DNA from: Escherichia coli
Lineage (GTDB): Bacteria > Pseudomonadota > Gammaproteobacteria > Enterobacterales > Enterobacteriaceae
Strand: one strand, 5' to 3'
NCBI RefSeq assembly: GCF_013315695.1
Contig: NZ_CP054353.1
DNA length: 64,000 bases
Notes under the pieces: model-generated
Database searches by the model: none
What the model was told of the DNA's origin: nothing
Seen by the model: only the letters and a program-made list of their open reading frames with translations
In this document: in pieces, positions 16,352 through 30,031 of the stretch
Numbering within the stretch: position 1 is the first letter of the stretch
How the letters are laid out: the number at the start of each line of letters is the position of its first letter
Made by a program: the position numbers and the translations under genes

Positions 16352-19051
16352 ATGCGTAAATATCCTTTAAGTTTACTGAAGGATAAAAATATTGTGACTT
16401 TTTTTGATTTCTGGGGAAAAACCCGACGCGGCGAGAAAGACGGGGGCGACGACTATCACCTTCTTTGCTGGCATTCGCTGGATGTAGCCGCGATGGGCTA
16501 TTTAATGGTTAAAAGCAATTGCTTCGGACTGGCTGACTATTTTCGTCAATTAGGTTTCGCTGACACGGAGCTGGCAGCACAATTTTTCGCCTGGCTGCTG
16601 TGCTGGCACGATATTGGAAAATTTGCCCGCTCTTTTCAGCAACTTTACCTGCACCCACAACTCAAGGTTCCGGAAGGCGCAAGAAAGAATTACGAAAAGA
16701 TCTCTCATTCAACGCTGGGCTACTGGTTGTGGAACCATTATTTAAGTGAATGTCAGGAGTTGCTTCCTTCATCTTCACTCTCTCCGCGCAAACTTAAACG
16801 GGTGATGGAGATGTGGATGCCCATGACTACCGGGCATCATGGTCGACCCCCTGAGCGTATGGATGAACTGGATAATTTTCTGCCTGAAGACAAAGGTGCC
16901 GCACGAGATTTTCTCCTTGCAATCAAGGTACTGTTTCCGCTCATAGAGATCCCCACATTCTGGGATGATGACGAGGGCGTTGAACTTATAAAACAACTTT
17001 CCTGGTATATCTCTGCAACCGTCGTACTTGCAGACTGGACGGGATCGTCAACGCGATATTTTCCACGCGTCGCACAGACAATGGATATTGAAGATTACTG
17101 GCAGAAAACTTTAGTTCAGGCTCAAAACGCCTTAACCGTCTTTCCTCCAAAAGCAGAAAGCGCGCCTTTCACCGGAATTAATACGCTGTTTCCTTTTATT
17201 GAGAATCCGACACCGCTACAGCAAAAGGTGCTGGATCTGGATATCAGCCAGCCGGGACCACAGTTATTTATTCTGGAGGATGTAACCGGCGCAGGTAAAA
17301 CAGAAGCGGCGCTTATCCTGGCGCACAGGTTGATGGCTGCGGGGAAAGCGCAGGGTTTGTTTTTTGGCCTGCCAACAATGGCAACGGCCAATGCCATGTA
17401 CGATCGACTGGTCAAAACCTGGCTTGCTTTCTATTCGCCAGAGTCCCGCCCCAGCCTGGTGCTGGCACACAGTGCCCGAACATTAATGGACCGCTTTAAT
17501 GAATCACTCTGGTCCGGTGATTTAGTCGGGTCAGAAGAACCGGATGAACAAACGTTCAGTCAGGGATGTGCGGCCTGGTTTGCCGACAGTAACAAGAAGG
17601 CGCTACTGGCTGAAATTGGCGTCGGCACGCTGGATCAGGCGATGATGGCTGTGATGCCGTTCAAACATAATAATCTGCGGCTTCTGGGACTGAGTAACAA
17701 AATCCTGCTGGCTGATGAGATCCATGCCTGTGACGCTTACATGTCATGCATTCTTGAAGGGCTGATCGAGCGGCAGGCGCGTGGCGGAAACAGCGTCATT
17801 TTGCTTTCTGCCACGTTATCTCAACAGCAGCGCGACAAACTCGTTGCTGCCTTTGCGCGTGGTATAGAGGGCCAGCAAGAAGCTCCGTTCCTGGAAAAGG
17901 ATGATTACCCCTGGCTGACGCACGTTACGAAATCCGATGTGCATTCACACCGGGTAGCGACGCGCAAAGACGTTGAGCGCAGCGTGAGTGTGGGTTGGCT
18001 TCATAGCGAACAAGAGTGTATTGCGCGTATCGAATCGGCGGTAAGTCAGGGGAAATGTATCGCCTGGATCCGAAATTCTGTCGATGACGCCATCCAGGTT
18101 CATCGTCAGTTACTTGCCCGCGGCGTCATTCCTGCTTCCAGCCTTTCACTTTTTCATAGCCGCTTTGCTTTTAGCGATCGCCAGCGAATTGAAACGGAGA
18201 CGCTGGCACGCTTTGGTAAAGAAGACTGTTCACAGCGTGCCGGAAAAGTCCTCATTTGTACTCAAGTCCTGGAGCAGAGCGTTGACTGCGACCTGGACGA
18301 AATGATTTCCGACCTTGCCCCTGTTGATTTACTGATCCAGCGAGCAGGGCGATTACAGCGACATATCCGCGATATGAATGGCCAGTTAAAGCGTGACGGT
18401 AAAGACGAGCGTCACCCTCCTGAATTGCTGATTCTGGCCCCCGTCTGGGACGACTCTCCGGGTGACGAATGGTTTGGCAGTGCCATGCGTAACAGTGCAT
18501 TTGTCTATCCCGATCATGGGCGAATCTGGCTGACGCAGCGTGTGCTGCGTGAGCAAGGTGCTATTCAGATGCCACACTCAGCCCGGCTTCTGATTGAATC
18601 AGTCTACGGTGAGGACGTAGTAATGCCGGAAGGGTTTGCCCGCAGCGAGCAGGAGCAAGTGGGCAAATATTACTGCGATCGCGCAATGGCTAAAAAGTTT
18701 GTACTGAACTTCAGGCCCGGCTATGCCGCCAATATCAACGATTACCTCCCGGAAAAACTGTCGACACGTCTGGCTGAAGAGTCTGTTTCCCTGTGGCTGG
18801 CTACCTGTATTGACGGTGTGGTGAAGCCTTATGCCACAGGTGCACACGCATGGGAAATGAGCGTTGTCAGAGTGCGCCGAAGCTGGTGGAAAAAACATCG
18901 GGATGAGTTTGCTTTACTGGAAGGGGATGCGTTCAGGCAGTGGTGCGTTGAACAGCGGCATGATCCGGAGATGGCAAACGTGATTTTAGTCACCGATGAC
19001 GAAAGTTGTGGGTATTCGGCTACGGAGGGATTGATTGGCAAGGTTGGTTGA
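16352..19051 (+). CDS. cas3: Type I-E Cas3 HD-nuclease/helicase
   Basis: 899-aa ORF with an N-terminal HD region (HSLDVAA...HDIGKF), Walker A GAGKTEAA and DExH box LLADEIHACD; start could instead be the GTG 14 codons downstream. Confidence 0.9.
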   Translation: MRKYPLSLLKDKNIVTFFDFWGKTRRGEKDGGDDYHLLCWHSLDVAAMGYLMVKSNCFGLADYFRQLGFADTELAAQFFAWLLCWHDIGKFARSFQQLYLHPQLKVPEGARKNYEKISHSTLGYWLWNHYLSECQELLPSSSLSPRKLKRVMEMWMPMTTGHHGRPPERMDELDNFLPEDKGAARDFLLAIKVLFPLIEIPTFWDDDEGVELIKQLSWYISATVVLADWTGSSTRYFPRVAQTMDIEDYWQKTLVQAQNALTVFPPKAESAPFTGINTLFPFIENPTPLQQKVLDLDISQPGPQLFILEDVTGAGKTEAALILAHRLMAAGKAQGLFFGLPTMATANAMYDRLVKTWLAFYSPESRPSLVLAHSARTLMDRFNESLWSGDLVGSEEPDEQTFSQGCAAWFADSNKKALLAEIGVGTLDQAMMAVMPFKHNNLRLLGLSNKILLADEIHACDAYMSCILEGLIERQARGGNSVILLSATLSQQQRDKLVAAFARGIEGQQEAPFLEKDDYPWLTHVTKSDVHSHRVATRKDVERSVSVGWLHSEQECIARIESAVSQGKCIAWIRNSVDDAIQVHRQLLARGVIPASSLSLFHSRFAFSDRQRIETETLARFGKEDCSQRAGKVLICTQVLEQSVDCDLDEMISDLAPVDLLIQRAGRLQRHIRDMNGQLKRDGKDERHPPELLILAPVWDDSPGDEWFGSAMRNSAFVYPDHGRIWLTQRVLREQGAIQMPHSARLLIESVYGEDVVMPEGFARSEQEQVGKYYCDRAMAKKFVLNFRPGYAANINDYLPEKLSTRLAEESVSLWLATCIDGVVKPYATGAHAWEMSVVRVRRSWWKKHRDEFALLEGDAFRQWCVEQRHDPEMANVILVTDDESCGYSATEGLIGKVG

Positions 19052-19140
19052 GATGTCTGCGACAGGATTCTCTGAATAGTTGATACACAAAAAAGGATGG
19101 ACAACCGACCAGGGATGGTCTTTTTTACGAGAGGATGCGT

Positions 19141-20703
19141 ATGAACTCGTTTTCACTTCTGACAACCCCGTGGTTGCCTGTTCGTTTCAAAGACGGAACG
19201 ACAGGCAAGCTGGCATCAGTCGATCTGGCTGATGAGAATGTTGTCGATATCGCCGCACCGCGAGCAGATTTACAAGGTGCGGCCTGGCAGTTTTTGCTGG
19301 GACTACTACAAACCAGCTTCGCGCCAAAAGATCATCGTCGTTGGGATGATATCTGGGAAGACGGACTGGAAGCTGAAAAGCTACGAGAAGCATTGCTGTC
19401 TTTAGAACATGCTTTCCAGTTTGGGCCTGATTCATCTTCATTTATGCAGGATTTTGAGGCGCTCACGGGAGATAAAGTTCCGGTCGCTTCGCTACTGCCT
19501 GAGATTCCCGGCTCTCAAACGACGAAGTTTAATAAAGACCATTTTATCAAGCGGGGTGTAACGGAATATCTGTGCCCCCATTGCTTAGCATTGGCCTTGT
19601 TCTCTTTACAGTTGAATGCACCCGCGGGCGGCAAAGGCTATCGCACCGGTTTACGCGGCGGTGGGCCGATGACGACTCTCATTGAATTACAGGAATATCA
19701 GGGCAATCAACAAACACCCTTGTGGCGCAAACTGTGGCTCAACGTGATGCCGCAGGATGAAGCCGACTTACCGCTACCCAAAAAATTTGACGATCTGATT
19801 TTCCCCTGGCTAGGCCCGACGCGTACCAGCGAACTGGCCGGTGCGGTGGTAACCCATGATCAGGTCAATAAACTCCAGGCGTACTGGGGAATGCCGCGGC
19901 GTATACGTATTGATTTTAATACCACGACAGTCGGCAACTGCGATATTTGCGACGAGCAGAACGACGCGCTCCTGAGCCTGATGACGACCAAAAATTATGG
20001 TGCCAATTATGCCATGTGGCAGCATCCCTTAACGCCTTACCGTGTACCACTTAAAGAGGGTGGCGAGTTTTACTCCGTTAAACCACAACCGGGCGGTTTA
20101 ATCTGGCGCGACTGGTTAGGCCTTATCGAAACGGGTAAATCAGAAAACAATACGGAACTTCCCGCGCTGGTGGTGAAACTCTTTAATGCCAGCAGTCTGA
20201 AACAGGCAAAAGTGGGCCTATGGGGATTTGGTTATGATTTTGACAACATGAAAGCGCGCTGTTGGTACGAACACCATTTCCCGCTACTGCTCAATAAAAA
20301 AGAAGGCCAGATACCGAAGCTGCGGCTGGCTGCGCAAACGGCTTCACGGATTCTGAGTCTGTTACGGAGTGCATTGAAAGAAGCATGGTTCTCCGATCCA
20401 AAAGGTGCAAGGGGTGATTTCAGTTTTGTGGATATCGACTTCTGGAACAAAACTCAGCATCGCTTCCTGAGGTTAGTGCGCCAAATTGAAGAAGGTCAGG
20501 ATGCGGATGAATTACTCGGCAAATGGCAAAAGGAAATTTGGTTATTCGCGCGTCAGGATTTTGACGAGCGTGTATTCACTAATCCTTATGAGCCCGTTGA
20601 TTTGAAACGCGTCATGACCGCGCGCAAGAAATATTTTACAACATCGGCGGAGAAGCAAAGTGCTAAAGCCGCCAGGGAGAAAAAGCAGGAGGCTGCTGAA
20701 TGA
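19141..20703 (+). CDS. casA: Cascade large subunit Cse1/CasA
   Basis: First gene after cas3 in a canonical I-E order; about 520 aa; start chosen at the second ATG, 6 nt after a GAGAGG RBS (the track ORF starts 2 codons earlier). Confidence 0.85.
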   Translation: MNSFSLLTTPWLPVRFKDGTTGKLASVDLADENVVDIAAPRADLQGAAWQFLLGLLQTSFAPKDHRRWDDIWEDGLEAEKLREALLSLEHAFQFGPDSSSFMQDFEALTGDKVPVASLLPEIPGSQTTKFNKDHFIKRGVTEYLCPHCLALALFSLQLNAPAGGKGYRTGLRGGGPMTTLIELQEYQGNQQTPLWRKLWLNVMPQDEADLPLPKKFDDLIFPWLGPTRTSELAGAVVTHDQVNKLQAYWGMPRRIRIDFNTTTVGNCDICDEQNDALLSLMTTKNYGANYAMWQHPLTPYRVPLKEGGEFYSVKPQPGGLIWRDWLGLIETGKSENNTELPALVVKLFNASSLKQAKVGLWGFGYDFDNMKARCWYEHHFPLLLNKKEGQIPKLRLAAQTASRILSLLRSALKEAWFSDPKGARGDFSFVDIDFWNKTQHRFLRLVRQIEEGQDADELLGKWQKEIWLFARQDFDERVFTNPYEPVDLKRVMTARKKYFTTSAEKQSAKAAREKKQEAAE

Positions 20704-21236
20704 GTATTGTAAAAGAGGAGCACAAAGCCACGCTGCGTAAATGGCACGAAGAGTTGCAGGAAAAACGCGGCAATCGTGCCAGTCTGCGGCGTAGCACAAC
20801 GGTTAATGATGTTTGTCTGTCAGAAGGTTTTCGTTCTCTGCTGATGCAGACCCACACGTTGTGGAAAATTGAATCACAGGAGTGGCGTTTTACCGCACTG
20901 GCGCTGGTTGCCGCCGTTGCCGCCAATGTAAAAGCCATTGATGAACGGCAGCCTTTTGCCGCGCAGTTGGCGGCGGTAATGTCTGAGGGGCGTTTTACTC
21001 GCCTGTCGGCAGTCAAAACGCCGGATGAATTACTGCGCCAGTTACGTCGCGCGGTCAAATTATTAAATGGTTCCGTCAATCTTATCTCTTTGGCAGACGA
21101 TATTTTCCGCTGGTGCCAGGAGAGTGACGACCTGCTCAATCATCACCGCCGCCAGCAGCGGCCAACAGAATTTATCCGTATCCGCTGGGCGCTGGAATAT
21201 TACCAGGCTGGCGACGCCGATAACGAACAAAATTAA
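20700..21236 (+). CDS. casB: Cascade small subunit Cse2/CasB
   Basis: 178-aa basic protein; ATGA start/stop overlap with casA. Confidence 0.85.
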   Translation: MSIVKEEHKATLRKWHEELQEKRGNRASLRRSTTVNDVCLSEGFRSLLMQTHTLWKIESQEWRFTALALVAAVAANVKAIDERQPFAAQLAAVMSEGRFTRLSAVKTPDELLRQLRRAVKLLNGSVNLISLADDIFRWCQESDDLLNHHRRQQRPTEFIRIRWALEYYQAGDADNEQN

Positions 21237-21250
21237 TAAAGGACTATCTC

Positions 21251-22306
21251 ATGACGACATTTATTCAGCTTCATTTGTTAACCGCTTACCCTGCTGCCAA
21301 CCTTAACCGTGATGACACCGGTGCGCCAAAAACTGTGGTACTGGGTGGAGCAACGCGTCTGCGCGTTTCCTCGCAAAGTCTGAAACGTGCGTGGCGCACT
21401 TCTGCACTTTTTGAACAGGCGCTGGCGGGCCATATTGGTATTCGTAGTGGGCGTATCGCGCGCGAGGCAGCAACTATCATGATTGAGAAAGGAATCGAAG
21501 AAAAAAAAGCCATCGAATGGGCGGCAGATATTGCCGATTATCTTGGTAAAGCCAAAAAAGACAAAAAACCAAAAGATCCGCTCACTAACGCTGAAACTGA
21601 ACAGCTCGTCCATATCAGCCCGGCAGAATTTGACGCCGTAAAAGCGCTGGCCCATCAACTGGCAGAAGAAAAGCGCGCGCCAAAAGAGGACGATCTCGCT
21701 TTGTTACGTAAAGATCGTATGGCGGTAGATATCGCCATGTTTGGTCGTATGCTGGCGAATAAACCCGAGTTTAATGTTGAAGCCGCCTGTCAGGTCGCGC
21801 ACGCGTTTGGTGTCAGTGAAACGATTGTCGAAGATGATTTTTTCACCGCCGTTGATGATTTGCGCCAGGCCTCTGAAGATGCTGGTGCAGGGCATCTTGG
21901 TGAAACTGGATTTGGTTCTGCGCTGTTCTACACCTATATCTGCATTGATAAAGATCTGCTGGTCGAAAACCTCGGCGGTGACGAAGCATTAGCTAATCAG
22001 ACCCTGCGCGCCTTTACGGAAGCAGCGTTTAAAGTTTCCCCAACCGGTAAACAAAACAGCTTTGCCAGCCGTGCCTACGCCTCCTGGGCGCTGGCAGAAA
22101 AAGGCACCGAACAACCGCGTTCTCTGGCGGCGGCTTTCTATGAACCCATTAATGGCACACGTCAGTTAGATGTGGCGGTGCAGCGTATTACAACGCTTCG
22201 CGAAAACATGAATACGGTTTACGAACAGAAGACCGAATGCGCAAGTTTTGACGTGATGAACAAACAGGGAAGCATGAAGGACGTGCTGGACTTTATCTGC
22301 GCGTAA
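21251..22306 (+). CDS. casC: Cascade backbone Cas7e/CasC
   Basis: 351-aa ORF MTTFIQLHLLTAYPAANLNRDDTGAPK..., typical Cas7e N-terminus. Confidence 0.9.
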   Translation: MTTFIQLHLLTAYPAANLNRDDTGAPKTVVLGGATRLRVSSQSLKRAWRTSALFEQALAGHIGIRSGRIAREAATIMIEKGIEEKKAIEWAADIADYLGKAKKDKKPKDPLTNAETEQLVHISPAEFDAVKALAHQLAEEKRAPKEDDLALLRKDRMAVDIAMFGRMLANKPEFNVEAACQVAHAFGVSETIVEDDFFTAVDDLRQASEDAGAGHLGETGFGSALFYTYICIDKDLLVENLGGDEALANQTLRAFTEAAFKVSPTGKQNSFASRAYASWALAEKGTEQPRSLAAAFYEPINGTRQLDVAVQRITTLRENMNTVYEQKTECASFDVMNKQGSMKDVLDFICA

Positions 22307-22316
22307 GGGGCGGCTT

Positions 22317-23063
22317 ATGAGCCAATATCTGATTTTTCAGCTTCATGGGCCAATGGCATCCTGGGGCGTTGATGCACCCGGTGAGGTGCGTCATACCCAT
22401 GAACTGCCTTCGCGTTCAGCATTGCTGGGGCTGCTGGCTGCCGGGGTAGGGATACGGCGTGATGACACCGAATGCTTAAACGCGTTTAATCGCCACTATT
22501 CACTGGTGGTTTGCGCCAGCCGTAACCCGCGCTGGGCACGGGATTATCACACGGTCCAGATGCCAAAAGAGGTGCGTAAAGCGCGTTATTTCAGCCGTCG
22601 CGAAGAGTTGAGCGACCCTGATCTTCTAAGCGCGATTATCTCCCGGCGCGACTACTACACCGATGCCTGGTGGATGGTGGCCGTGGCAACAACAGCTGAT
22701 GCGCCTTACAGCCTCGAACAGTTGCAGGAAGGTTTACGCCATCCGGCTTTTCCGCTTTATCTGGGGCGAAAAAGCCATCCGCTGGCATTACCCCTTGCGC
22801 CGTTACTGCTTGAAGGTAACGCGTCTGATGCCTTACGTAACGCATACCAACAGTATCAGGATCGTTTCCACGAACTGAAAGTCTCACTCCCGAAACTTCA
22901 GGATGAATGCTGGTGGGAAGGGGAGCACGATGGCCTGGTCTCGAGCAAAATATTACGCCGCCGGGATGTTCCTTTAAATCGTCAGCAGTGGCTGTTTGGG
23001 GAACGCACCGTCAATCAGGGGCCGTGGCTCAGCAAGGAGGAACCATGTACCTCTCAAGAATAA
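22317..23063 (+). CDS. casD: Cascade Cas5e/CasD
   Basis: 248-aa ORF MSQYLIFQLHGPMASWG..., Cas5e signature. Confidence 0.9.
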   Translation: MSQYLIFQLHGPMASWGVDAPGEVRHTHELPSRSALLGLLAAGVGIRRDDTECLNAFNRHYSLVVCASRNPRWARDYHTVQMPKEVRKARYFSRREELSDPDLLSAIISRRDYYTDAWWMVAVATTADAPYSLEQLQEGLRHPAFPLYLGRKSHPLALPLAPLLLEGNASDALRNAYQQYQDRFHELKVSLPKLQDECWWEGEHDGLVSSKILRRRDVPLNRQQWLFGERTVNQGPWLSKEEPCTSQE

Positions 23064-23691
23064 CCTTACATACCGGTCAGCTTTCGCCTGCGCAGTTGCT
23101 GCATTTGGTGGATCGCGGTGAATATGTGATGCATCAGTGGCTGTGGGATCTTTTTCCTGGCGGCAAAGAAAGGCAATTTCTTTATCGTCGGGAAGAACTC
23201 CAGGGCGCGTTTCGCTTTTTTGTCCTGTCGCAGGAACGCCCGGCGGAAAGTGAAACGTTCACCATCGAATGCCGGTCATTTGCGCCTGAACTGCATACCG
23301 GACAATCCCTTTGTTTCAACCTGCGGGCGAATCCAACAGTCTGTAAAGCGGGTAAGCGCCACGATCTGCTGATGGAGGCGAAACGGCAGGTGAGGGGGCA
23401 GGCGGAAGGAAGAAATGTCTGGTTGCATCAACAACAGGCGGCGCTGGACTGGCTGGCAGCGCAGGGGGAGAGAAGCGGTTTTACACTGCTGGATACCTCG
23501 GTCGATGCCTACCGACAACAGCAACTGCGGCGGGAAAACTCCCGGCAACTGATCCAGTTCAGTAGCGTGGATTATACGGGGATGCTTACGGTCACCGATC
23601 CTGGGTTATTTCTGCAACGTCTGAGCCAGGGGTATGGCAAAAGCCGGGCGTTCGGTTGTGGTCTGATGCTGATCAAACCTGGAGCAGAGGC

Positions 23692-23695
<4 letters not shown>
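23045..23695 (+). CDS. casE: Cas6e/CasE crRNA endoribonuclease
   Basis: Start at ATG 23045 after an AGGAGG RBS (MYLSRITLHTGQ...); overlaps the casD 3' end by 19 nt; the track ORF from 22907 is a 5' over-extension. Confidence 0.85.
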
Positions 23696-24905
<1,210 letters not shown>

Positions 24906-25001
24906 GTTACCCGTTCTTTAAAAATAAGGAAAAGTTTGAATTTAGTTGGTAGATTGTTGTTGTGGAATAAAATTGTTTAAAAACAGATACGTATGCTTAG
25001 T
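24906..25001 (+). promoter_or_regulatory. CRISPR leader
   Basis: 96-bp AT-rich sequence between the cas2 stop and the first repeat. Confidence 0.6.
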
Positions 25002-25213
25002 GTGTTCCCCGCGCCAGCGGGGATAAACCGGCTGGGTACTAGCCAGGGTGAAAGGAAGTCACGTGTTCCCCGCGCCAGCGGGGATAAACCGTCGACAATG
25101 GATAAGTTGACTTCAGGTCTGGGGAGTTCCCCGCGCTAGCGGGAATAAACCGTGCAGTACGCCTGATGACAAACCAGGCATCGGGAGTTCCCCCGCGTCA
25201 GCGGGGAACTCCC
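25002..25213 (+). CRISPR. Type I-E CRISPR array: 4 repeats (29 bp) and 3 spacers (32 bp)
   Basis: Repeats at 25002, 25063, 25124 and 25185 (61-bp period): GTGTTCCCCGCGCCAGCGGGGATAAACCG twice, then GAGTTCCCCGCGCTAGCGGGAATAAACCG, then a degenerate terminal repeat GAGTTCCCCCGCGTCAGCGGGGAACTCCC. Spacers: gctgggtactagccagggtgaaaggaagtcac; tcgacaatggataagttgacttcaggtctggg; tgcagtacgcctgatgacaaaccaggcatcgg. Confidence 0.9.
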
Positions 25214-25233
25214 AGCTCCCATTTTCAAACCCA

Positions 25234-26271
25234 TCAAGACGCCTTCGCCAGCTCCTTCACCAGCGGTAGCATTATCCGCATAACGTCACGGCAGCGACGT
25301 TCTATTCTTCCAGGAAGCGCCTTATCAATATGCTGTTGATTATCAAGCCTTACATCATGCCAGCTATTTCCTGCAGGGAATGCGGTTGTTTTTGCGCGTT
25401 GCTGATAACCATCCTTATTCCCAAGATCCCAGTTAGTCGCTTCCACCGAAAGTACAGCAATGCCCGCTTTGTCGAATATTTCTGCGTCATTACAACACCC
25501 AGTGCCTTTCGGATAATTTTTATTCAAACCCGGATTGGTCGTTGCGGCAATTCCATGACTACGCGCAATTGCCAGCGCCCTGTCGCGCGTTAATTTCCTT
25601 ACTGCTTCAGGGGTTTTTACACCGCTGTTGAAATACAATTTATCGCCAACAATTAAGTTATCGAGATTAATCACCAGCAGTGTATTTTTCTTTTCGGAGT
25701 CACTCATCCGCTTGAGTAAATTCTCAGCGCCTAATTTCCCTTCCTCTTCGCCGCTGGTCGCCACAAATCGAATACCATACTCGGTAGGCGTATTTTTCAG
25801 GCGTTCTGCCAATTCCAGCATGACACCTAAACCTGCGGCGTTATCATCCATTCCTTGTAACGTCAGCCCGCCGAGATTGGCATCGGCGTCAGCATCGCTC
25901 AGCGGGGCGTAAGTATCCAGATGCGCCATAATGATGATCTGCTGCGGCGCTTTGCCTTCATGAGCGGCAATCACCGTACTTCCCGTCACGTTATGCCAGC
26001 TCTTGCGATTATCGCGGGCGGTATAAATATACCGACTATTAAATGTCCGAATATCACTGCGATAACCCATTTGCTGAAACTGTTGGCGAATATAATCGGC
26101 AGATAACATTTCTGCAGGAGTTCCGGTCATGCGTCCCGGAAAGAAAGTAGCAATATGTCGTGCCTGGGTATTAGCAAAATCGCCAGGTTTAGGTGACGAG
26201 GCGTGTACGGGGAGAATAAAGCATACGCCGAGCGCCAGGGCAGCGGTACGGTGGCGCAATGCGGAAAACAT
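25234..26271 (-). CDS. iap: Alkaline phosphatase isozyme conversion aminopeptidase (M28 family), secreted
   Basis: 345-aa ORF with an N-terminal signal peptide (MFSALRHRTAALALGVCFILPVHA); convergent with the CRISPR array as in K-12. Confidence 0.85.
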   Translation of the reverse strand: MFSALRHRTAALALGVCFILPVHASSPKPGDFANTQARHIATFFPGRMTGTPAEMLSADYIRQQFQQMGYRSDIRTFNSRYIYTARDNRKSWHNVTGSTVIAAHEGKAPQQIIIMAHLDTYAPLSDADADANLGGLTLQGMDDNAAGLGVMLELAERLKNTPTEYGIRFVATSGEEEGKLGAENLLKRMSDSEKKNTLLVINLDNLIVGDKLYFNSGVKTPEAVRKLTRDRALAIARSHGIAATTNPGLNKNYPKGTGCCNDAEIFDKAGIAVLSVEATNWDLGNKDGYQQRAKTTAFPAGNSWHDVRLDNQQHIDKALPGRIERRCRDVMRIMLPLVKELAKAS

Positions 26272-26522
26272 AGTGAGTCCTTAAATACCATGCAAATTTT
26301 TTTACCGCCATAGTATGAAACTGCCGCTGCGCTAAAACAATTTCAAATCTTCCTAAACGCCCGAAATCCGGTGCCTTAAGCACTTTTTGATATTAGCTTT
26401 GCCAAATCGTTATTCCGTTAAGGAACTACTCATTCTAATTGGTAATTTCATTCGTTCTCTTACGCTCCCTATAGTCGAAACATCTGATGGCAAGAAAATA
26501 GCGGTATTGCAAAGGAACGGTT
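26272..26522. promoter_or_regulatory. Divergent iap / cysDNC promoter region
   Basis: 250-bp intergenic region upstream of cysD; CysB activation of cysDNC is established knowledge, sites not mapped here. Confidence 0.4.
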
Positions 26523-27431
26523 ATGGATCAAAAACGACTTACTCACCTGCGGCAACTGGAGGCGGAAAGCATCCACATTATTCGCGAGGTGGCGGCAGAA
26601 TTCTCAAATCCGGTGATGCTCTACTCTATCGGTAAAGATTCCAGCGTCATGTTGCATCTGGCGCGCAAGGCGTTTTATCCAGGTACGCTGCCTTTCCCGT
26701 TGCTGCATGTCGATACCGGCTGGAAATTCCGCGAGATGTATGAGTTCCGCGATCGTACGGCGAAAGCCTACGGCTGCGAGCTGCTGGTGCATAAAAACCC
26801 GGAAGGCGTGGCGATGGGGATTAATCCATTCGTACACGGCAGCGCGAAACATACCGATATTATGAAAACTGAAGGCCTGAAACAGGCGCTGAACAAATAC
26901 GGTTTTGATGCCGCCTTCGGTGGTGCGCGCCGTGACGAAGAGAAATCCCGCGCTAAAGAGCGAATCTACTCTTTCCGTGACCGCTTCCATCGCTGGGATC
27001 CGAAAAATCAGCGCCCGGAGCTGTGGCACAACTACAACGGGCAAATTAACAAAGGCGAAAGCATCCGCGTCTTCCCGCTCTCTAACTGGACCGAGCAGGA
27101 TATCTGGCAATACATCTGGCTGGAAAATATCGACATTGTGCCGCTGTATCTCGCTGCGGAACGTCCGGTTCTGGAACGCGACGGTATGTTGATGATGATT
27201 GATGACAACCGTATCGACCTGCAACCGGGCGAAGTGATTAAAAAACGGATGGTGCGTTTCCGTACGCTGGGCTGCTGGCCGCTGACCGGTGCGGTGGAGT
27301 CAAATGCACAAACACTGCCGGAGATCATCGAAGAGATGCTGGTTTCCACCACCAGTGAACGTCAGGGCCGCGTGATTGACCGCGACCAGGCGGGGTCTAT
27401 GGAGCTGAAAAAACGTCAGGGGTATTTTTAA
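26523..27431 (+). CDS. cysD: Sulfate adenylyltransferase subunit 2
   Basis: 302-aa [30 protein letters not shown]..., PAPS-reductase-like fold. Confidence 0.95.
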
Positions 27432-27432
27432 G

Positions 27433-28860
27433 ATGAACACCGCACTTGCACAACAAATCGCCAATGAAGGCGGCGTCGAAGCCTGGATGATTGCGCAACA
27501 ACATAAAAGCCTGCTGCGTTTTCTGACCTGTGGTAGCGTCGATGACGGCAAAAGTACCCTGATTGGTCGCCTGCTGCACGATACCCGCCAAATCTACGAA
27601 GATCAGCTCTCATCGCTGCATAACGACAGTAAGCGTCACGGCACCCAGGGCGAAAAGCTGGATCTGGCGCTTCTGGTGGATGGTCTGCAAGCCGAGCGTG
27701 AACAGGGCATTACTATTGATGTGGCCTACCGCTATTTCTCTACCGAGAAGCGTAAATTTATTATCGCCGACACACCTGGGCACGAGCAGTACACCCGCAA
27801 TATGGCGACCGGCGCATCGACATGCGAACTGGCGATCTTACTGATCGACGCCCGTAAAGGCGTGCTCGATCAAACCCGTCGTCACAGTTTTATCTCCACA
27901 CTGTTGGGGATCAAACATCTGGTCGTGGCGATCAACAAAATGGATCTGGTGGATTACAGTGAAGAGACGTTCACCCGTATTCGTGAAGATTATCTGACTT
28001 TTGCCGGGCAGCTGCCGGGTAATCTGGATATCCGCTTTGTGCCGCTCTCTGCACTGGAAGGCGACAACGTGGCTTCGCAAAGTGAAAGTATGCCGTGGTA
28101 CAGCGGTCCGACACTGCTCGAAGTGCTGGAAACCGTGGAGATCCAGCGAGTGGTGGATGCCCAGCCAATGCGCTTCCCGGTGCAGTACGTTAATCGCCCG
28201 AATCTCGATTTTCGTGGCTACGCCGGAACGCTGGCATCCGGTCGCGTGGAAGTCGGGCAACGTGTCAAAGTGCTGCCCTCTGGTGTGGAATCAAACGTCG
28301 CGCGGATCGTGACCTTTGATGGCGATCGCGAAGAAGCCTTTGCCGGAGAAGCGATCACCCTGGTGCTGACGGATGAAATCGACATCAGCCGTGGCGATCT
28401 GCTGCTGGCGGCAGACGAAGCGTTACCGGCTGTGCAGAGCGCGTCGGTGGATGTGGTATGGATGGCGGAACAGCCGCTTTCCCCGGGCCAGAGTTACGAC
28501 ATCAAAATTGCCGGTAAGAAGACGCGTGCTCGTGTTGATGGCATTCGTTATCAGGTTGATATCAATAACCTTACCCAACGCGAAGTTGAAAACCTGCCGC
28601 TGAACGGCATCGGCCTGGTAGATCTCACCTTTGACGAGCCACTGGTGTTAGATCGTTATCAGCAAAACCCGGTTACCGGTGGGCTGATTTTTATCGATCG
28701 CCTGAGTAATGTGACCGTAGGTGCCGGTATGGTGCACGAACCAGTTAGCCAGGCAACTGCTGCACCATCTGAATTCAGTGCATTCGAACTGGAATTGAAT
28801 GCCCTGGTTCGCCGCCATTTCCCTCATTGGGGTGCGCGCGATTTACTGGGAGATAAATAA
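27433..28860 (+). CDS. cysN: Sulfate adenylyltransferase subunit 1 (GTPase)
   Basis: 475-aa ORF with GTP-binding motifs ([18 protein letters not shown]). Confidence 0.95.
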
Positions 28861-29465
28861 TGGCTCTGCATGACGAAAACGTCGTCTGGCATAGCCACCC
28901 AGTAACTCCGCAACAACGCGAACAGCACCACGGTCATCGTGGTGTTGTGCTGTGGTTTACCGGCCTCTCTGGTTCCGGTAAATCAACCGTCGCGGGGGCG
29001 CTGGAGGAGGCGTTACATAAACTTGGCGTCAGTACGTATCTGCTGGATGGCGACAATGTTCGCCACGGATTATGCAGCGATCTCGGTTTTAGCGATGCCG
29101 ATCGTAAAGAAAATATCCGTCGCGTCGGTGAAGTGGCGAATTTGATGGTTGAAGCCGGACTGGTGGTGCTGACCGCATTTATCTCGCCACACCGCGCCGA
29201 ACGCCAGATGGTTCGCGAACGCGTAGGAGAAGGGCGCTTTATCGAAGTGTTTGTCGATACACCGCTGGCGATTTGCGAAGCCCGCGATCCAAAAGGCTTA
29301 TATAAGAAAGCGCGTGCCGGTGAACTGCGCAACTTTACGGGAATAGATTCCGTTTACGAAGCGCCTGAATCGGCAGAAATTCATCTCAATGGTGAACAAT
29401 TAGTAACAAATTTGGTACAGCAATTATTAGATCTGTTGAGACAGAACGATATTATCAGATCCTGA
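28860..29465 (+). CDS. cysC: Adenylylsulfate (APS) kinase
   Basis: 201-aa ORF with P-loop GLSGSGKST; start overlaps the cysN stop. Confidence 0.95.
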
Positions 29466-29514
29466 GACACCACCGGGTTTCCATGCCCGGTTCGTCAAAG
29501 TAACAGGATCAAAT

Positions 29515-29838
29515 ATGCGTAATAGCCATAACATTACACTAACAAATAACGACAGCCTTACTGAGGATGAAGAAACCACATGGTCACTGCCTGGTGCCGT
29601 GGTCGGTTTTATCTCATGGTTATTTGCGCTGGCGATGCCGATGTTGATTTATGGCTCTAACACGCTGTTCTTCTTTATCTACACCTGGCCTTTCTTTCTG
29701 GCACTGATGCCTGTCGCGGTAGTGGTGGGGATTGCGCTGCATTCATTGATGGACGGAAAGCTACGCTACAGTATTGTTTTCACCCTGGTGACAGTAGGCA
29801 TTATGTTTGGCGCACTGTTTATGTGGCTACTGGGCTAA
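29515..29838 (+). CDS. ygbE: Small inner-membrane protein (DUF3561-like)
   Basis: 107-aa hydrophobic ORF at the K-12 syntenic position between cysC and ftsB. Confidence 0.75.
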   Translation: MRNSHNITLTNNDSLTEDEETTWSLPGAVVGFISWLFALAMPMLIYGSNTLFFFIYTWPFFLALMPVAVVVGIALHSLMDGKLRYSIVFTLVTVGIMFGALFMWLLG

Positions 29839-30031
29839 TTTGTACTTTCTTGTCTCCTCTGTTCATAATTCAAACCGTAACTAATAATGAGATTATGTTC
29901 TGCACGCCCTGGGTATACGTAACAATGGACAAATGTGGTACATTTGCCCGCGTTGTCGCGGTATCCCCAACAGAGGATGTAGAGTCGTCTTCGGATGCAT
30001 GGGATGATGATGCCGTTTTTCAGGGGGCAGG

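Follow-up and report, generated by a model that had tools for sequence, protein, structure and literature searches.

The iap-proximal CRISPR1 array of Escherichia coli was reportedly first sighted by Ishino et al. in 1987 and is said to have been surveyed by Diez-Villasenor et al. in 2010. The species is also known for quasipalindrome-associated template-switch mutation, by which, following the Ripley model, an imperfect inverted repeat moves closer to a perfect one. CRISPR1 of E. coli was surveyed as well by Touchon and Rocha (2010), and its published range is 1 to 28 repeats per genome (PMC2886076). Degenerate trailer repeats have been described as leader-distal repeats with a consensus-like 5' part and a diverged 3' end, which are conserved together with the oldest spacers (PMC8047081, PMC12839519), and trailer mutations usually lower the dyad symmetry of the repeat ends (PMC8047081).

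The array analyzed here, which lies within a 64,000-nt stretch of E. coli DNA (contig NZ_CP054353.1; hereafter, the window), is with a probability of roughly 85% the canonical CRISPR1 (CRISPR2.1) array of a complete type I-E system, ending in a trailer repeat that has decayed species-wide and not in a terminator or insulator. The system has been thoroughly described before, and the array agrees with it in every feature of CRISPR1 membership that could be tested here, namely the locus, the 29-nt repeat, the 32-nt spacers, the leader, the trailer end GAACTCCC followed by AGCTCCCATTTTC, and the PAM AAG, AGG, or ATG; its four repeats fall inside the published range. Differences are confined to the allele level: the array is short, with 3 spacers, its oldest spacer is not the common GGCGCACTGGATGCG..., and the inner stem of its trailer repeat reads GCGTCAGCGGGG in place of the common GCC(T/C)CTGCGGTAG. 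The striking palindrome at the array end represents a rare, minor allele of a trailer repeat that has already been described for E. coli. The sole mildly unusual point is that the CRISPR1 trailer of E. coli gains, rather than loses, dyad symmetry, which might interest students of repeat decay or of template-switch mutagenesis.

A complete type I-E locus in its usual chromosomal context

The gene order around the array, cysJIH-cas3...cas2-leader-array-iap-cysDN, is the usual one for E. coli, and a 551-nt query spanning cas2, the array, and iap matched 5423 of the 5426 complete E. coli genomes, with all matches being chromosomal and annotated as cas2e, CRISPR, and iap. All 8 cas genes as well as iap exceed the curated NCBIfam cut-offs (Table 1), and the complete I-E operon is joined to the first repeat by a conserved AT-rich leader that starts behind cas2. 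For cas6e, the true start lies inside the ORF spanning 22907-23695, since the family match begins only at residue 47.

Table 1. Coordinates of the cas operon, the CRISPR1 array, and iap within the 64,000-nt window.
Feature	Position	Strand	Remarks
cas3 (899 aa)	16352..19051	+	NCBIfam Cas3 core and HD domains above cut-off
cse1/casA	19135..20703	+	TIGR02547, 607 bits
cse2/casB	20700..21236	+	TIGR02548, 105 bits
cas7/casC	21251..22306	+	TIGR01869, 444 bits
cas5/casD	22317..23063	+	TIGR01868, 158 bits
cas6e/casE	23045..23695	+	TIGR01907, 287.5 bits
cas1e	23656..24615	+	TIGR03638, 380 bits
cas2e	24612..24905	+	TIGR01873, 133 bits; annotated cas2e in relatives
AT-rich leader	24906..25001	+	identical in MS 21-1 and AF3, near-identical in E24377A
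Repeat 1	25002..25030	+	consensus GTGTTCCCCGCGCCAGCGGGGATAAACCG
Spacer 1, GCTGGGTACTAGCCAGGGTGAAAGGAAGTCAC	25031..25062	+	also in the AF3 and GF131 arrays
Repeat 2	25063..25091	+	consensus GTGTTCCCCGCGCCAGCGGGGATAAACCG
Spacer 2, TCGACAATGGATAAGTTGACTTCAGGTCTGGG	25092..25123	+	targets SSU5-family phage-plasmids
Repeat 3, degenerate, GAGTTCCCCGCGCTAGCGGGAATAAACCG	25124..25152	+	T2A, C14T, G21A
Spacer 3, TGCAGTACGCCTGATGACAAACCAGGCATCGG	25153..25184	+	oldest spacer in the lineage; elsewhere only in arrays of related strains
Terminal (trailer) repeat, GAGTTCCCCCGCGTCAGCGGGGAACTCCC	25185..25213	+	hairpin together with 25183-25184
Unique 20-nt stretch, AGCTCCCATTTTCAAACCCA, from trailer to iap stop	25214..25233	.	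first 17 nt AGCTCCCATTTTCAAAC
iap (aminopeptidase)	25234..26271	-	NF007568, 702 bits, full length; annotated iap in all relatives; convergent with the array

A preliminary description of this DNA, made from its sequence alone, had reported a short array with three 32-bp spacers, and this was confirmed: four 29-nt repeats and three 32-nt spacers occupy positions 25002-25213. The repeats start 61, 61, and 62 nt apart, as is typical of the regular spacing of a type I-E array, and their 27-nt core occurs in 3 copies in the window when up to 3 mismatches are allowed (0 expected from 100 shuffles). The repeat corresponds to the published E. coli/Salmonella I-E consensus in reverse-complement orientation (PMC2886076, its Table 1). 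No second array with the CRISPR1 repeat was found in the window, and an Rfam scan of positions 20000-30000 at E <= 1 returned no family.

The three substitutions that had been noted in the third repeat were likewise recovered, as T2A, C14T, and G21A relative to GTGTTCCCCGCGCCAGCGGGGATAAACCG. T2A has been recorded before as an A/T polymorphism in the E. coli/Salmonella I-E repeat family (Table 1 of PMC2886076). Repeat 3 folds with -10.6 kcal/mol, compared to -15.2 kcal/mol for the consensus repeat, and G21A disrupts the closing C-G pair beside the Cas6e cleavage site, so that processing between spacer 2 and spacer 3 may be weakened. Repeat 3 was inherited unchanged in the strains AF3, MS 21-1, GF131, and RMDEC465, and G21A alone is carried by 2020CK-00188; spacer 3 and the G21A repeat are evidently old within this lineage.

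Spacer 2 targets SSU5-family phage-plasmids

An AWG-type PAM had been predicted for protospacers of this array, and the search for them bore this out for spacer 2, which matched 13 phage and 748 plasmid records in the phage and plasmid collections, with the PAM being AAG or AGG. The match comprises 31/32 positions in the Salmonella plasmid pSA20094620.2 (PAM AGG, sole mismatch at position 24) and 29/32 positions in phage SSU5 and the E. coli plasmid pTB212 (PAM AAG, mismatches at positions 6, 21, and 24). In SSU5-family elements, the portal and major capsid genes flank a gene annotated as DUF6651, whose 3' end contains the protospacer; the family includes phage SSU5 itself, pHCM2-like Salmonella plasmids, pMT1 of Yersinia pestis, and E. 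coli plasmids of approximately 100 kb. Type I-E Cascade leaves every sixth position unpaired, including positions 6 and 24, and the effective mismatch load of spacer 2 is therefore 0-1, outside the seed. Across the 748 plasmid records, protospacer variants differ chiefly at positions 6 and 24, in addition to position 21.

A spacer that is present in sister arrays and missing from the window array (Sx) matches a prophage tail-assembly-chaperone gene over 32/32 positions, with the PAM ATG. Spacer 2 and Sx thus both derive from mobile elements and have an AAG-type PAM 5' of the protospacer, as is the case for type I-E systems, and their PAMs, including that of a real SSU5-family protospacer, bear out both the array's orientation and the AWG-type motif.

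For spacers 1 and 3, no protospacer was identified in phages, plasmids, IMG/VR, or the window. The IMG/VR search employed patterns with N at each sixth position, none of which matched, and the closest match of these spacers inside the window has 12-13 mismatches. Two candidates were rejected: the best blastn match to phages and plasmids reaches only 27/31 on a Pantoea plasmid, which is at chance level, and a 31/32 match of spacer 3 in E. coli genomes is the same spacer in the array of another strain, not a protospacer.

The window array is a pruned form of longer sister arrays

The window array has the order S1-S2-S3. In AF3, and likewise in MSB1_4I and two more strains, it is S1-Sx-S2-S3; MS 21-1 carries Sx-S2-S3, and in GF131 at least 5 newer spacers are followed by S1-Sy-S2-S3. 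Other forms are found in RMDEC465, with S2-S3' joined to a truncated cas3, and in 2020CK-00188, with eleven other spacers preceding S3'. AF3, MS 21-1, and GF131 agree completely with the window in the leader, repeat 3, spacer 2, spacer 3, and the trailer. At the level of sequence, this comparison with sister arrays shows that the window array is short through the loss of internal spacer-repeat units, representing a pruned version of the longer arrays of its closest relatives.

In 2020CK-00188, a truncated cas3 abuts a mutated first repeat, without a leader or other cas genes, and the 12-spacer array ends in the oldest spacer of the window with one SNP. In RMDEC465, the truncated cas3 is directly fused to a repeat, and the cas3-array junction of strain 20 is similar. 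The presence of such junctions in several strains suggests recurrent cas3-to-array deletions.

The diverged trailer repeat is species-wide

Array ends were compared with those of 17 other E. coli records, yielding ten distinct trailer alleles, along with one strain that has lost its trailer. All ten alleles, including that of K-12, end in GAAC(T/A)CCC, followed by AGCTCCCATTTTC / AGCTCCCATTTTCAAAC; the latter stretch is identical across all E. coli genomes read, except that 2020CK-00188 lacks its AGCTCC due to the hairpin deletion described below. The last repeat of the window array is thus a degenerate trailer of the described kind, being leader-distal and sharing its 3' divergence with related arrays, and general reviews of trailer-repeat decay agree with this reading (PMC8047081, PMC12839519).

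These results modify the preliminary description, according to which the terminal repeat had been remodelled into a longer palindrome. The palindrome itself is real, but the remodelling did not take place in this array: AACTCCC has evidently stood in place of ATAAACCG for a long time and throughout the species, K-12 included. It had been stated in advance that the proposal would fall if the palindrome were standard in related arrays and had no 3' end mapped to it, and this is largely the case, since GAACTCCC and the outer GAGTTC/GAACTC pairing are standard, although the intact inner stem is specific to the lineage. Similarly, ATAAACCG is indeed lost, but it was not a 3' handle as then worded, because the 3' end of a repeat provides the 5' handle of the next crRNA. 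As no spacer follows the last repeat, this loss is costless.

The K-12 trailer, GGAGTTCCCCCGCCTCTGCGGTAGAACTCCC, has the five-C run and the outer 7-bp GGAGTTC/GAACTCC complementarity in common with the window allele and folds with -17.4 kcal/mol; for the E24377A-type trailer, TAGAATTCCCCGCCCCTGCGGTAGAACTCCC, the value is -6.6 kcal/mol. What is peculiar to the window lineage is only the intact inner stem GCGTCAGCGGGG (CCCCGC/GCGGGG). The exact 122-nt block comprising repeat 3, spacer 3, the trailer, and its flank was found in 6 of the 5426 complete genomes, as well as in RMDEC465 at 95.9%, and a sister allele with GAGCTC occurs in a few further genomes. Among 2600 matching genomes, approximately one-third carry K-12-like and more than half weak E24377A-like alleles, as estimated from 60 evenly spaced rows of the ranking.

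Two related alleles deserve separate mention. The trailer of RMDEC465 contains one extra G opposite the bulged C of the window hairpin, which results in a perfect 14-bp palindrome with -32.3 kcal/mol. A deletion of 29 nt between AGTTCC and AGCTCC has removed the loop and the right arm in 2020CK-00188, which is closely related to RMDEC465 at the array locus; its annotated iap is nevertheless intact. No outgroup that could polarize the alleles was obtained, as a search of GTDB representative genomes with GAACWCCCAGCTCCCATTTTC returned a single contig, which is E. coli DNA.

The hairpin at the array end

The 11-bp perfect inverted repeat of the preliminary description, GGGAGTTCCCC (25183-25193) and GGGGAACTCCC (25203-25213), was confirmed, as was its position 20 nt before the convergent iap stop (exactly 25214-25233). 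As RNA, the 31 nt fold into 11 bp, a bulged C, and 2 bp around the loop GUCA, with -25.2 kcal/mol on the + strand (z = -5.5, with 0/200 shuffles as good) and -24.3 kcal/mol on the minus strand, so that the GC-rich hairpin of an intrinsic terminator is present on both strands.

Since the gaps that MAFFT introduced into the trailer alleles fell at the 5' end instead of within the C run, conservation of the pairing was judged from per-allele folds rather than from column-based covariation. The hairpin energies of the alleles are -5.3, -6.6, -10.5, -12.7, -15.1, -17.4, -25.2, and -32.3 kcal/mol. The arm changes GAATTC (E24377A type), GAACAC (ECN24 type), and GAGCTC (strain 20 type) are uncompensated, and one change, the extra G of RMDEC465, is compensatory in effect; the hairpin is hence neither conserved nor generally compensated at the orthologous site.

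A U-tract is absent within 0-2 nt of the stem on both strands, and a terminator scan called no site at the hairpin. The stem is followed by AGCUCCCAUUUUC / AGCTCCCA on the + strand, where a U run begins 9 nt beyond it, and by GAUGCCUGG / GATGCCTG / GAUGCCUGGUUUG on the minus strand. The hairpin therefore lacks two of the three features by which an intrinsic terminator could be recognized here.

Spacer 3 has an inverted repeat of its own at 25159-25182, which on the minus strand forms a 9-bp hairpin (G-U pairs included) adjoining that of the trailer. The iap-sense RNA would thus be predicted to bear two adjoining stem-loops, one from spacer 3 and one from the trailer.

Proposed origin of the trailer allele

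In the window and in K-12, the 3' divergence of the trailer raises dyad symmetry, unlike in degenerate trailer repeats generally, because AACTC, which replaces ATAAA, is the exact complement of GAGTT at the 5' end of the repeat. A random five-base replacement would yield AACTC in approximately 1 of 1000 cases. New flank bases that exactly complement the opposite flank are the hallmark of a template switch, and the further one-base correction in RMDEC465 is also in line with mutations of the Ripley type; we infer that the two together carry the signature of quasipalindrome correction. Here, however, the events are deduced from natural alleles, and the one-base changes in C/G runs equally fit slippage. 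A template switch from quasipalindrome to palindrome, or slippage, is thus the most likely origin of the trailer allele, which would be a mutational one.

Such an allele would have persisted because new spacers are acquired without ever renewing the trailer repeat, and because this repeat is a poor partner for recombination with the others, for which a general argument has been made (PMC8047081). In the window lineage, the intact inner stem together with the ancient pairing of AACTC with GAGTT would then give the long hairpin, from which the extra G of RMDEC465 would represent a further step to a perfect palindrome and the deletion in 2020CK-00188 the converse outcome for hairpin-forming DNA. 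The sole likely role of the trailer would be that of a putative Cas6e-binding stem-loop, from which the last crRNA, that of spacer 3, would take its 3' handle, and nothing downstream would need the missing ATAAACCG.

Alternative explanations for the hairpin

The preliminary description had proposed that the palindrome could terminate the pre-crRNA or insulate iap, and an extended trailer hairpin functioning as a bidirectional terminator or insulator, stopping synthesis of the pre-crRNA and/or the iap mRNA and keeping transcription from colliding, would account for a strong GC-rich stem-loop on both strands, located between convergent units and only 20 nt from the iap stop, as in Rho-independent bidirectional terminators. 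Unlike these, however, the stem at the array end has no adjacent U-tract on either strand and is not conserved among orthologous loci: hairpins are weak (-5 to -17 kcal/mol) in most E. coli alleles, the E24377A-, ECN24-, and strain 20-type alleles have uncompensated arm substitutions, and 2020CK-00188 retains an intact iap after deletion of the hairpin. In addition, neither iap nor cas2 is named in any row of the supplementary tables of a study of K-12 3' ends (Adams et al. 2021), although as a negative this carries little weight. Due to the missing U-tract, a stability that varies from -5 to -32 kcal/mol, the uncompensated arms, and the deletion strain, the idea of a terminator or insulator is unsupported, and we regard such a function as very unlikely. 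Nevertheless, two points speak against regarding the trailer as simply decayed: the hairpin is very stable and located exactly between convergent units, where it may affect RNA 3' ends through pausing or exonuclease protection, and the complementarity of AACTC to GAGTT is conserved species-wide, which could mean selection instead of a frozen accident. One could imagine the hairpin as an RNA 3'-end element that needs no U-tract and, by blocking exonucleases or serving as a pause or roadblock site, caps and stabilizes the iap mRNA and/or the precursor of the last crRNA, being regenerated at E. coli array ends by recurrent quasipalindrome correction, but we would give this idea little credence.

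Selection might also act on the inner stem, keeping it for Cas6e-dependent maturation of the spacer 3 crRNA, with the extension of the palindrome being incidental. Here, CCCCGC/GCGGGG and the 4-nt loop are kept as in the consensus repeat, while the stem of the common alleles has decayed, and spacer 3 has been retained in at least 3 array configurations and two lineages. Yet spacer 3 lacks a detectable target, the repeat upstream of it has G21A at the Cas6e site, and the helix spans the expected cleavage position and could thereby hinder Cas6e; moreover, spacers at the trailer end are kept for recombination reasons whatever their usefulness (PMC8047081). On balance, selection for this maturation appears unlikely. 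That the palindrome acts as DNA, either by extruding a hairpin or cruciform through which rearrangements of the array end are favored or restrained, or by binding a protein, seems highly improbable. Hairpin-forming DNA is known to undergo deletions such as the 29-nt loss of loop and right arm in 2020CK-00188, which occurred between near-identical hexamers flanking the hairpin, as well as palindrome-perfecting one-base gains such as that in RMDEC465. Both events would fit this explanation, but they reflect mutational instability rather than function, no protein motif was identified at the palindrome, and the pairing is unconserved across alleles. The decayed trailer of a canonical CRISPR1 array, with a hairpin of probably mutational origin, is the reading that we prefer.

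Additional observations

The contig returned by the outgroup search, JAEWTL010000035.1 (4.5 kb, labeled 'MAG: Bacillota bacterium OH_SDB_141'), contains at positions 1-700 the 3' end of iap together with the end of an E. coli CRISPR1 array, whose trailer is of the ECN24 type; the contig is almost certainly a piece of E. coli DNA that was wrongly binned into a Bacillota MAG.

Within the leader, a promoter-like site was found on the + strand at 24946-24973 (TTGGTA, a 16-nt gap, and TAAAAT; 9/12 positions), which is a plausible position for the array promoter. Furthermore, a boxA-like motif, GTTCTTTAAAAA, lies just past the cas2 stop at 24913-24924; the resemblance is our own reading, and the motif agrees at 10/12 positions with the E. 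coli boxA consensus, GCTCTTTAACAA. Functional boxA antitermination elements have been described upstream of the CRISPR leaders of Salmonella by Stringer et al. (2020; PMC7665894), and GTTCTTTAAAAA is located in the equivalent place.
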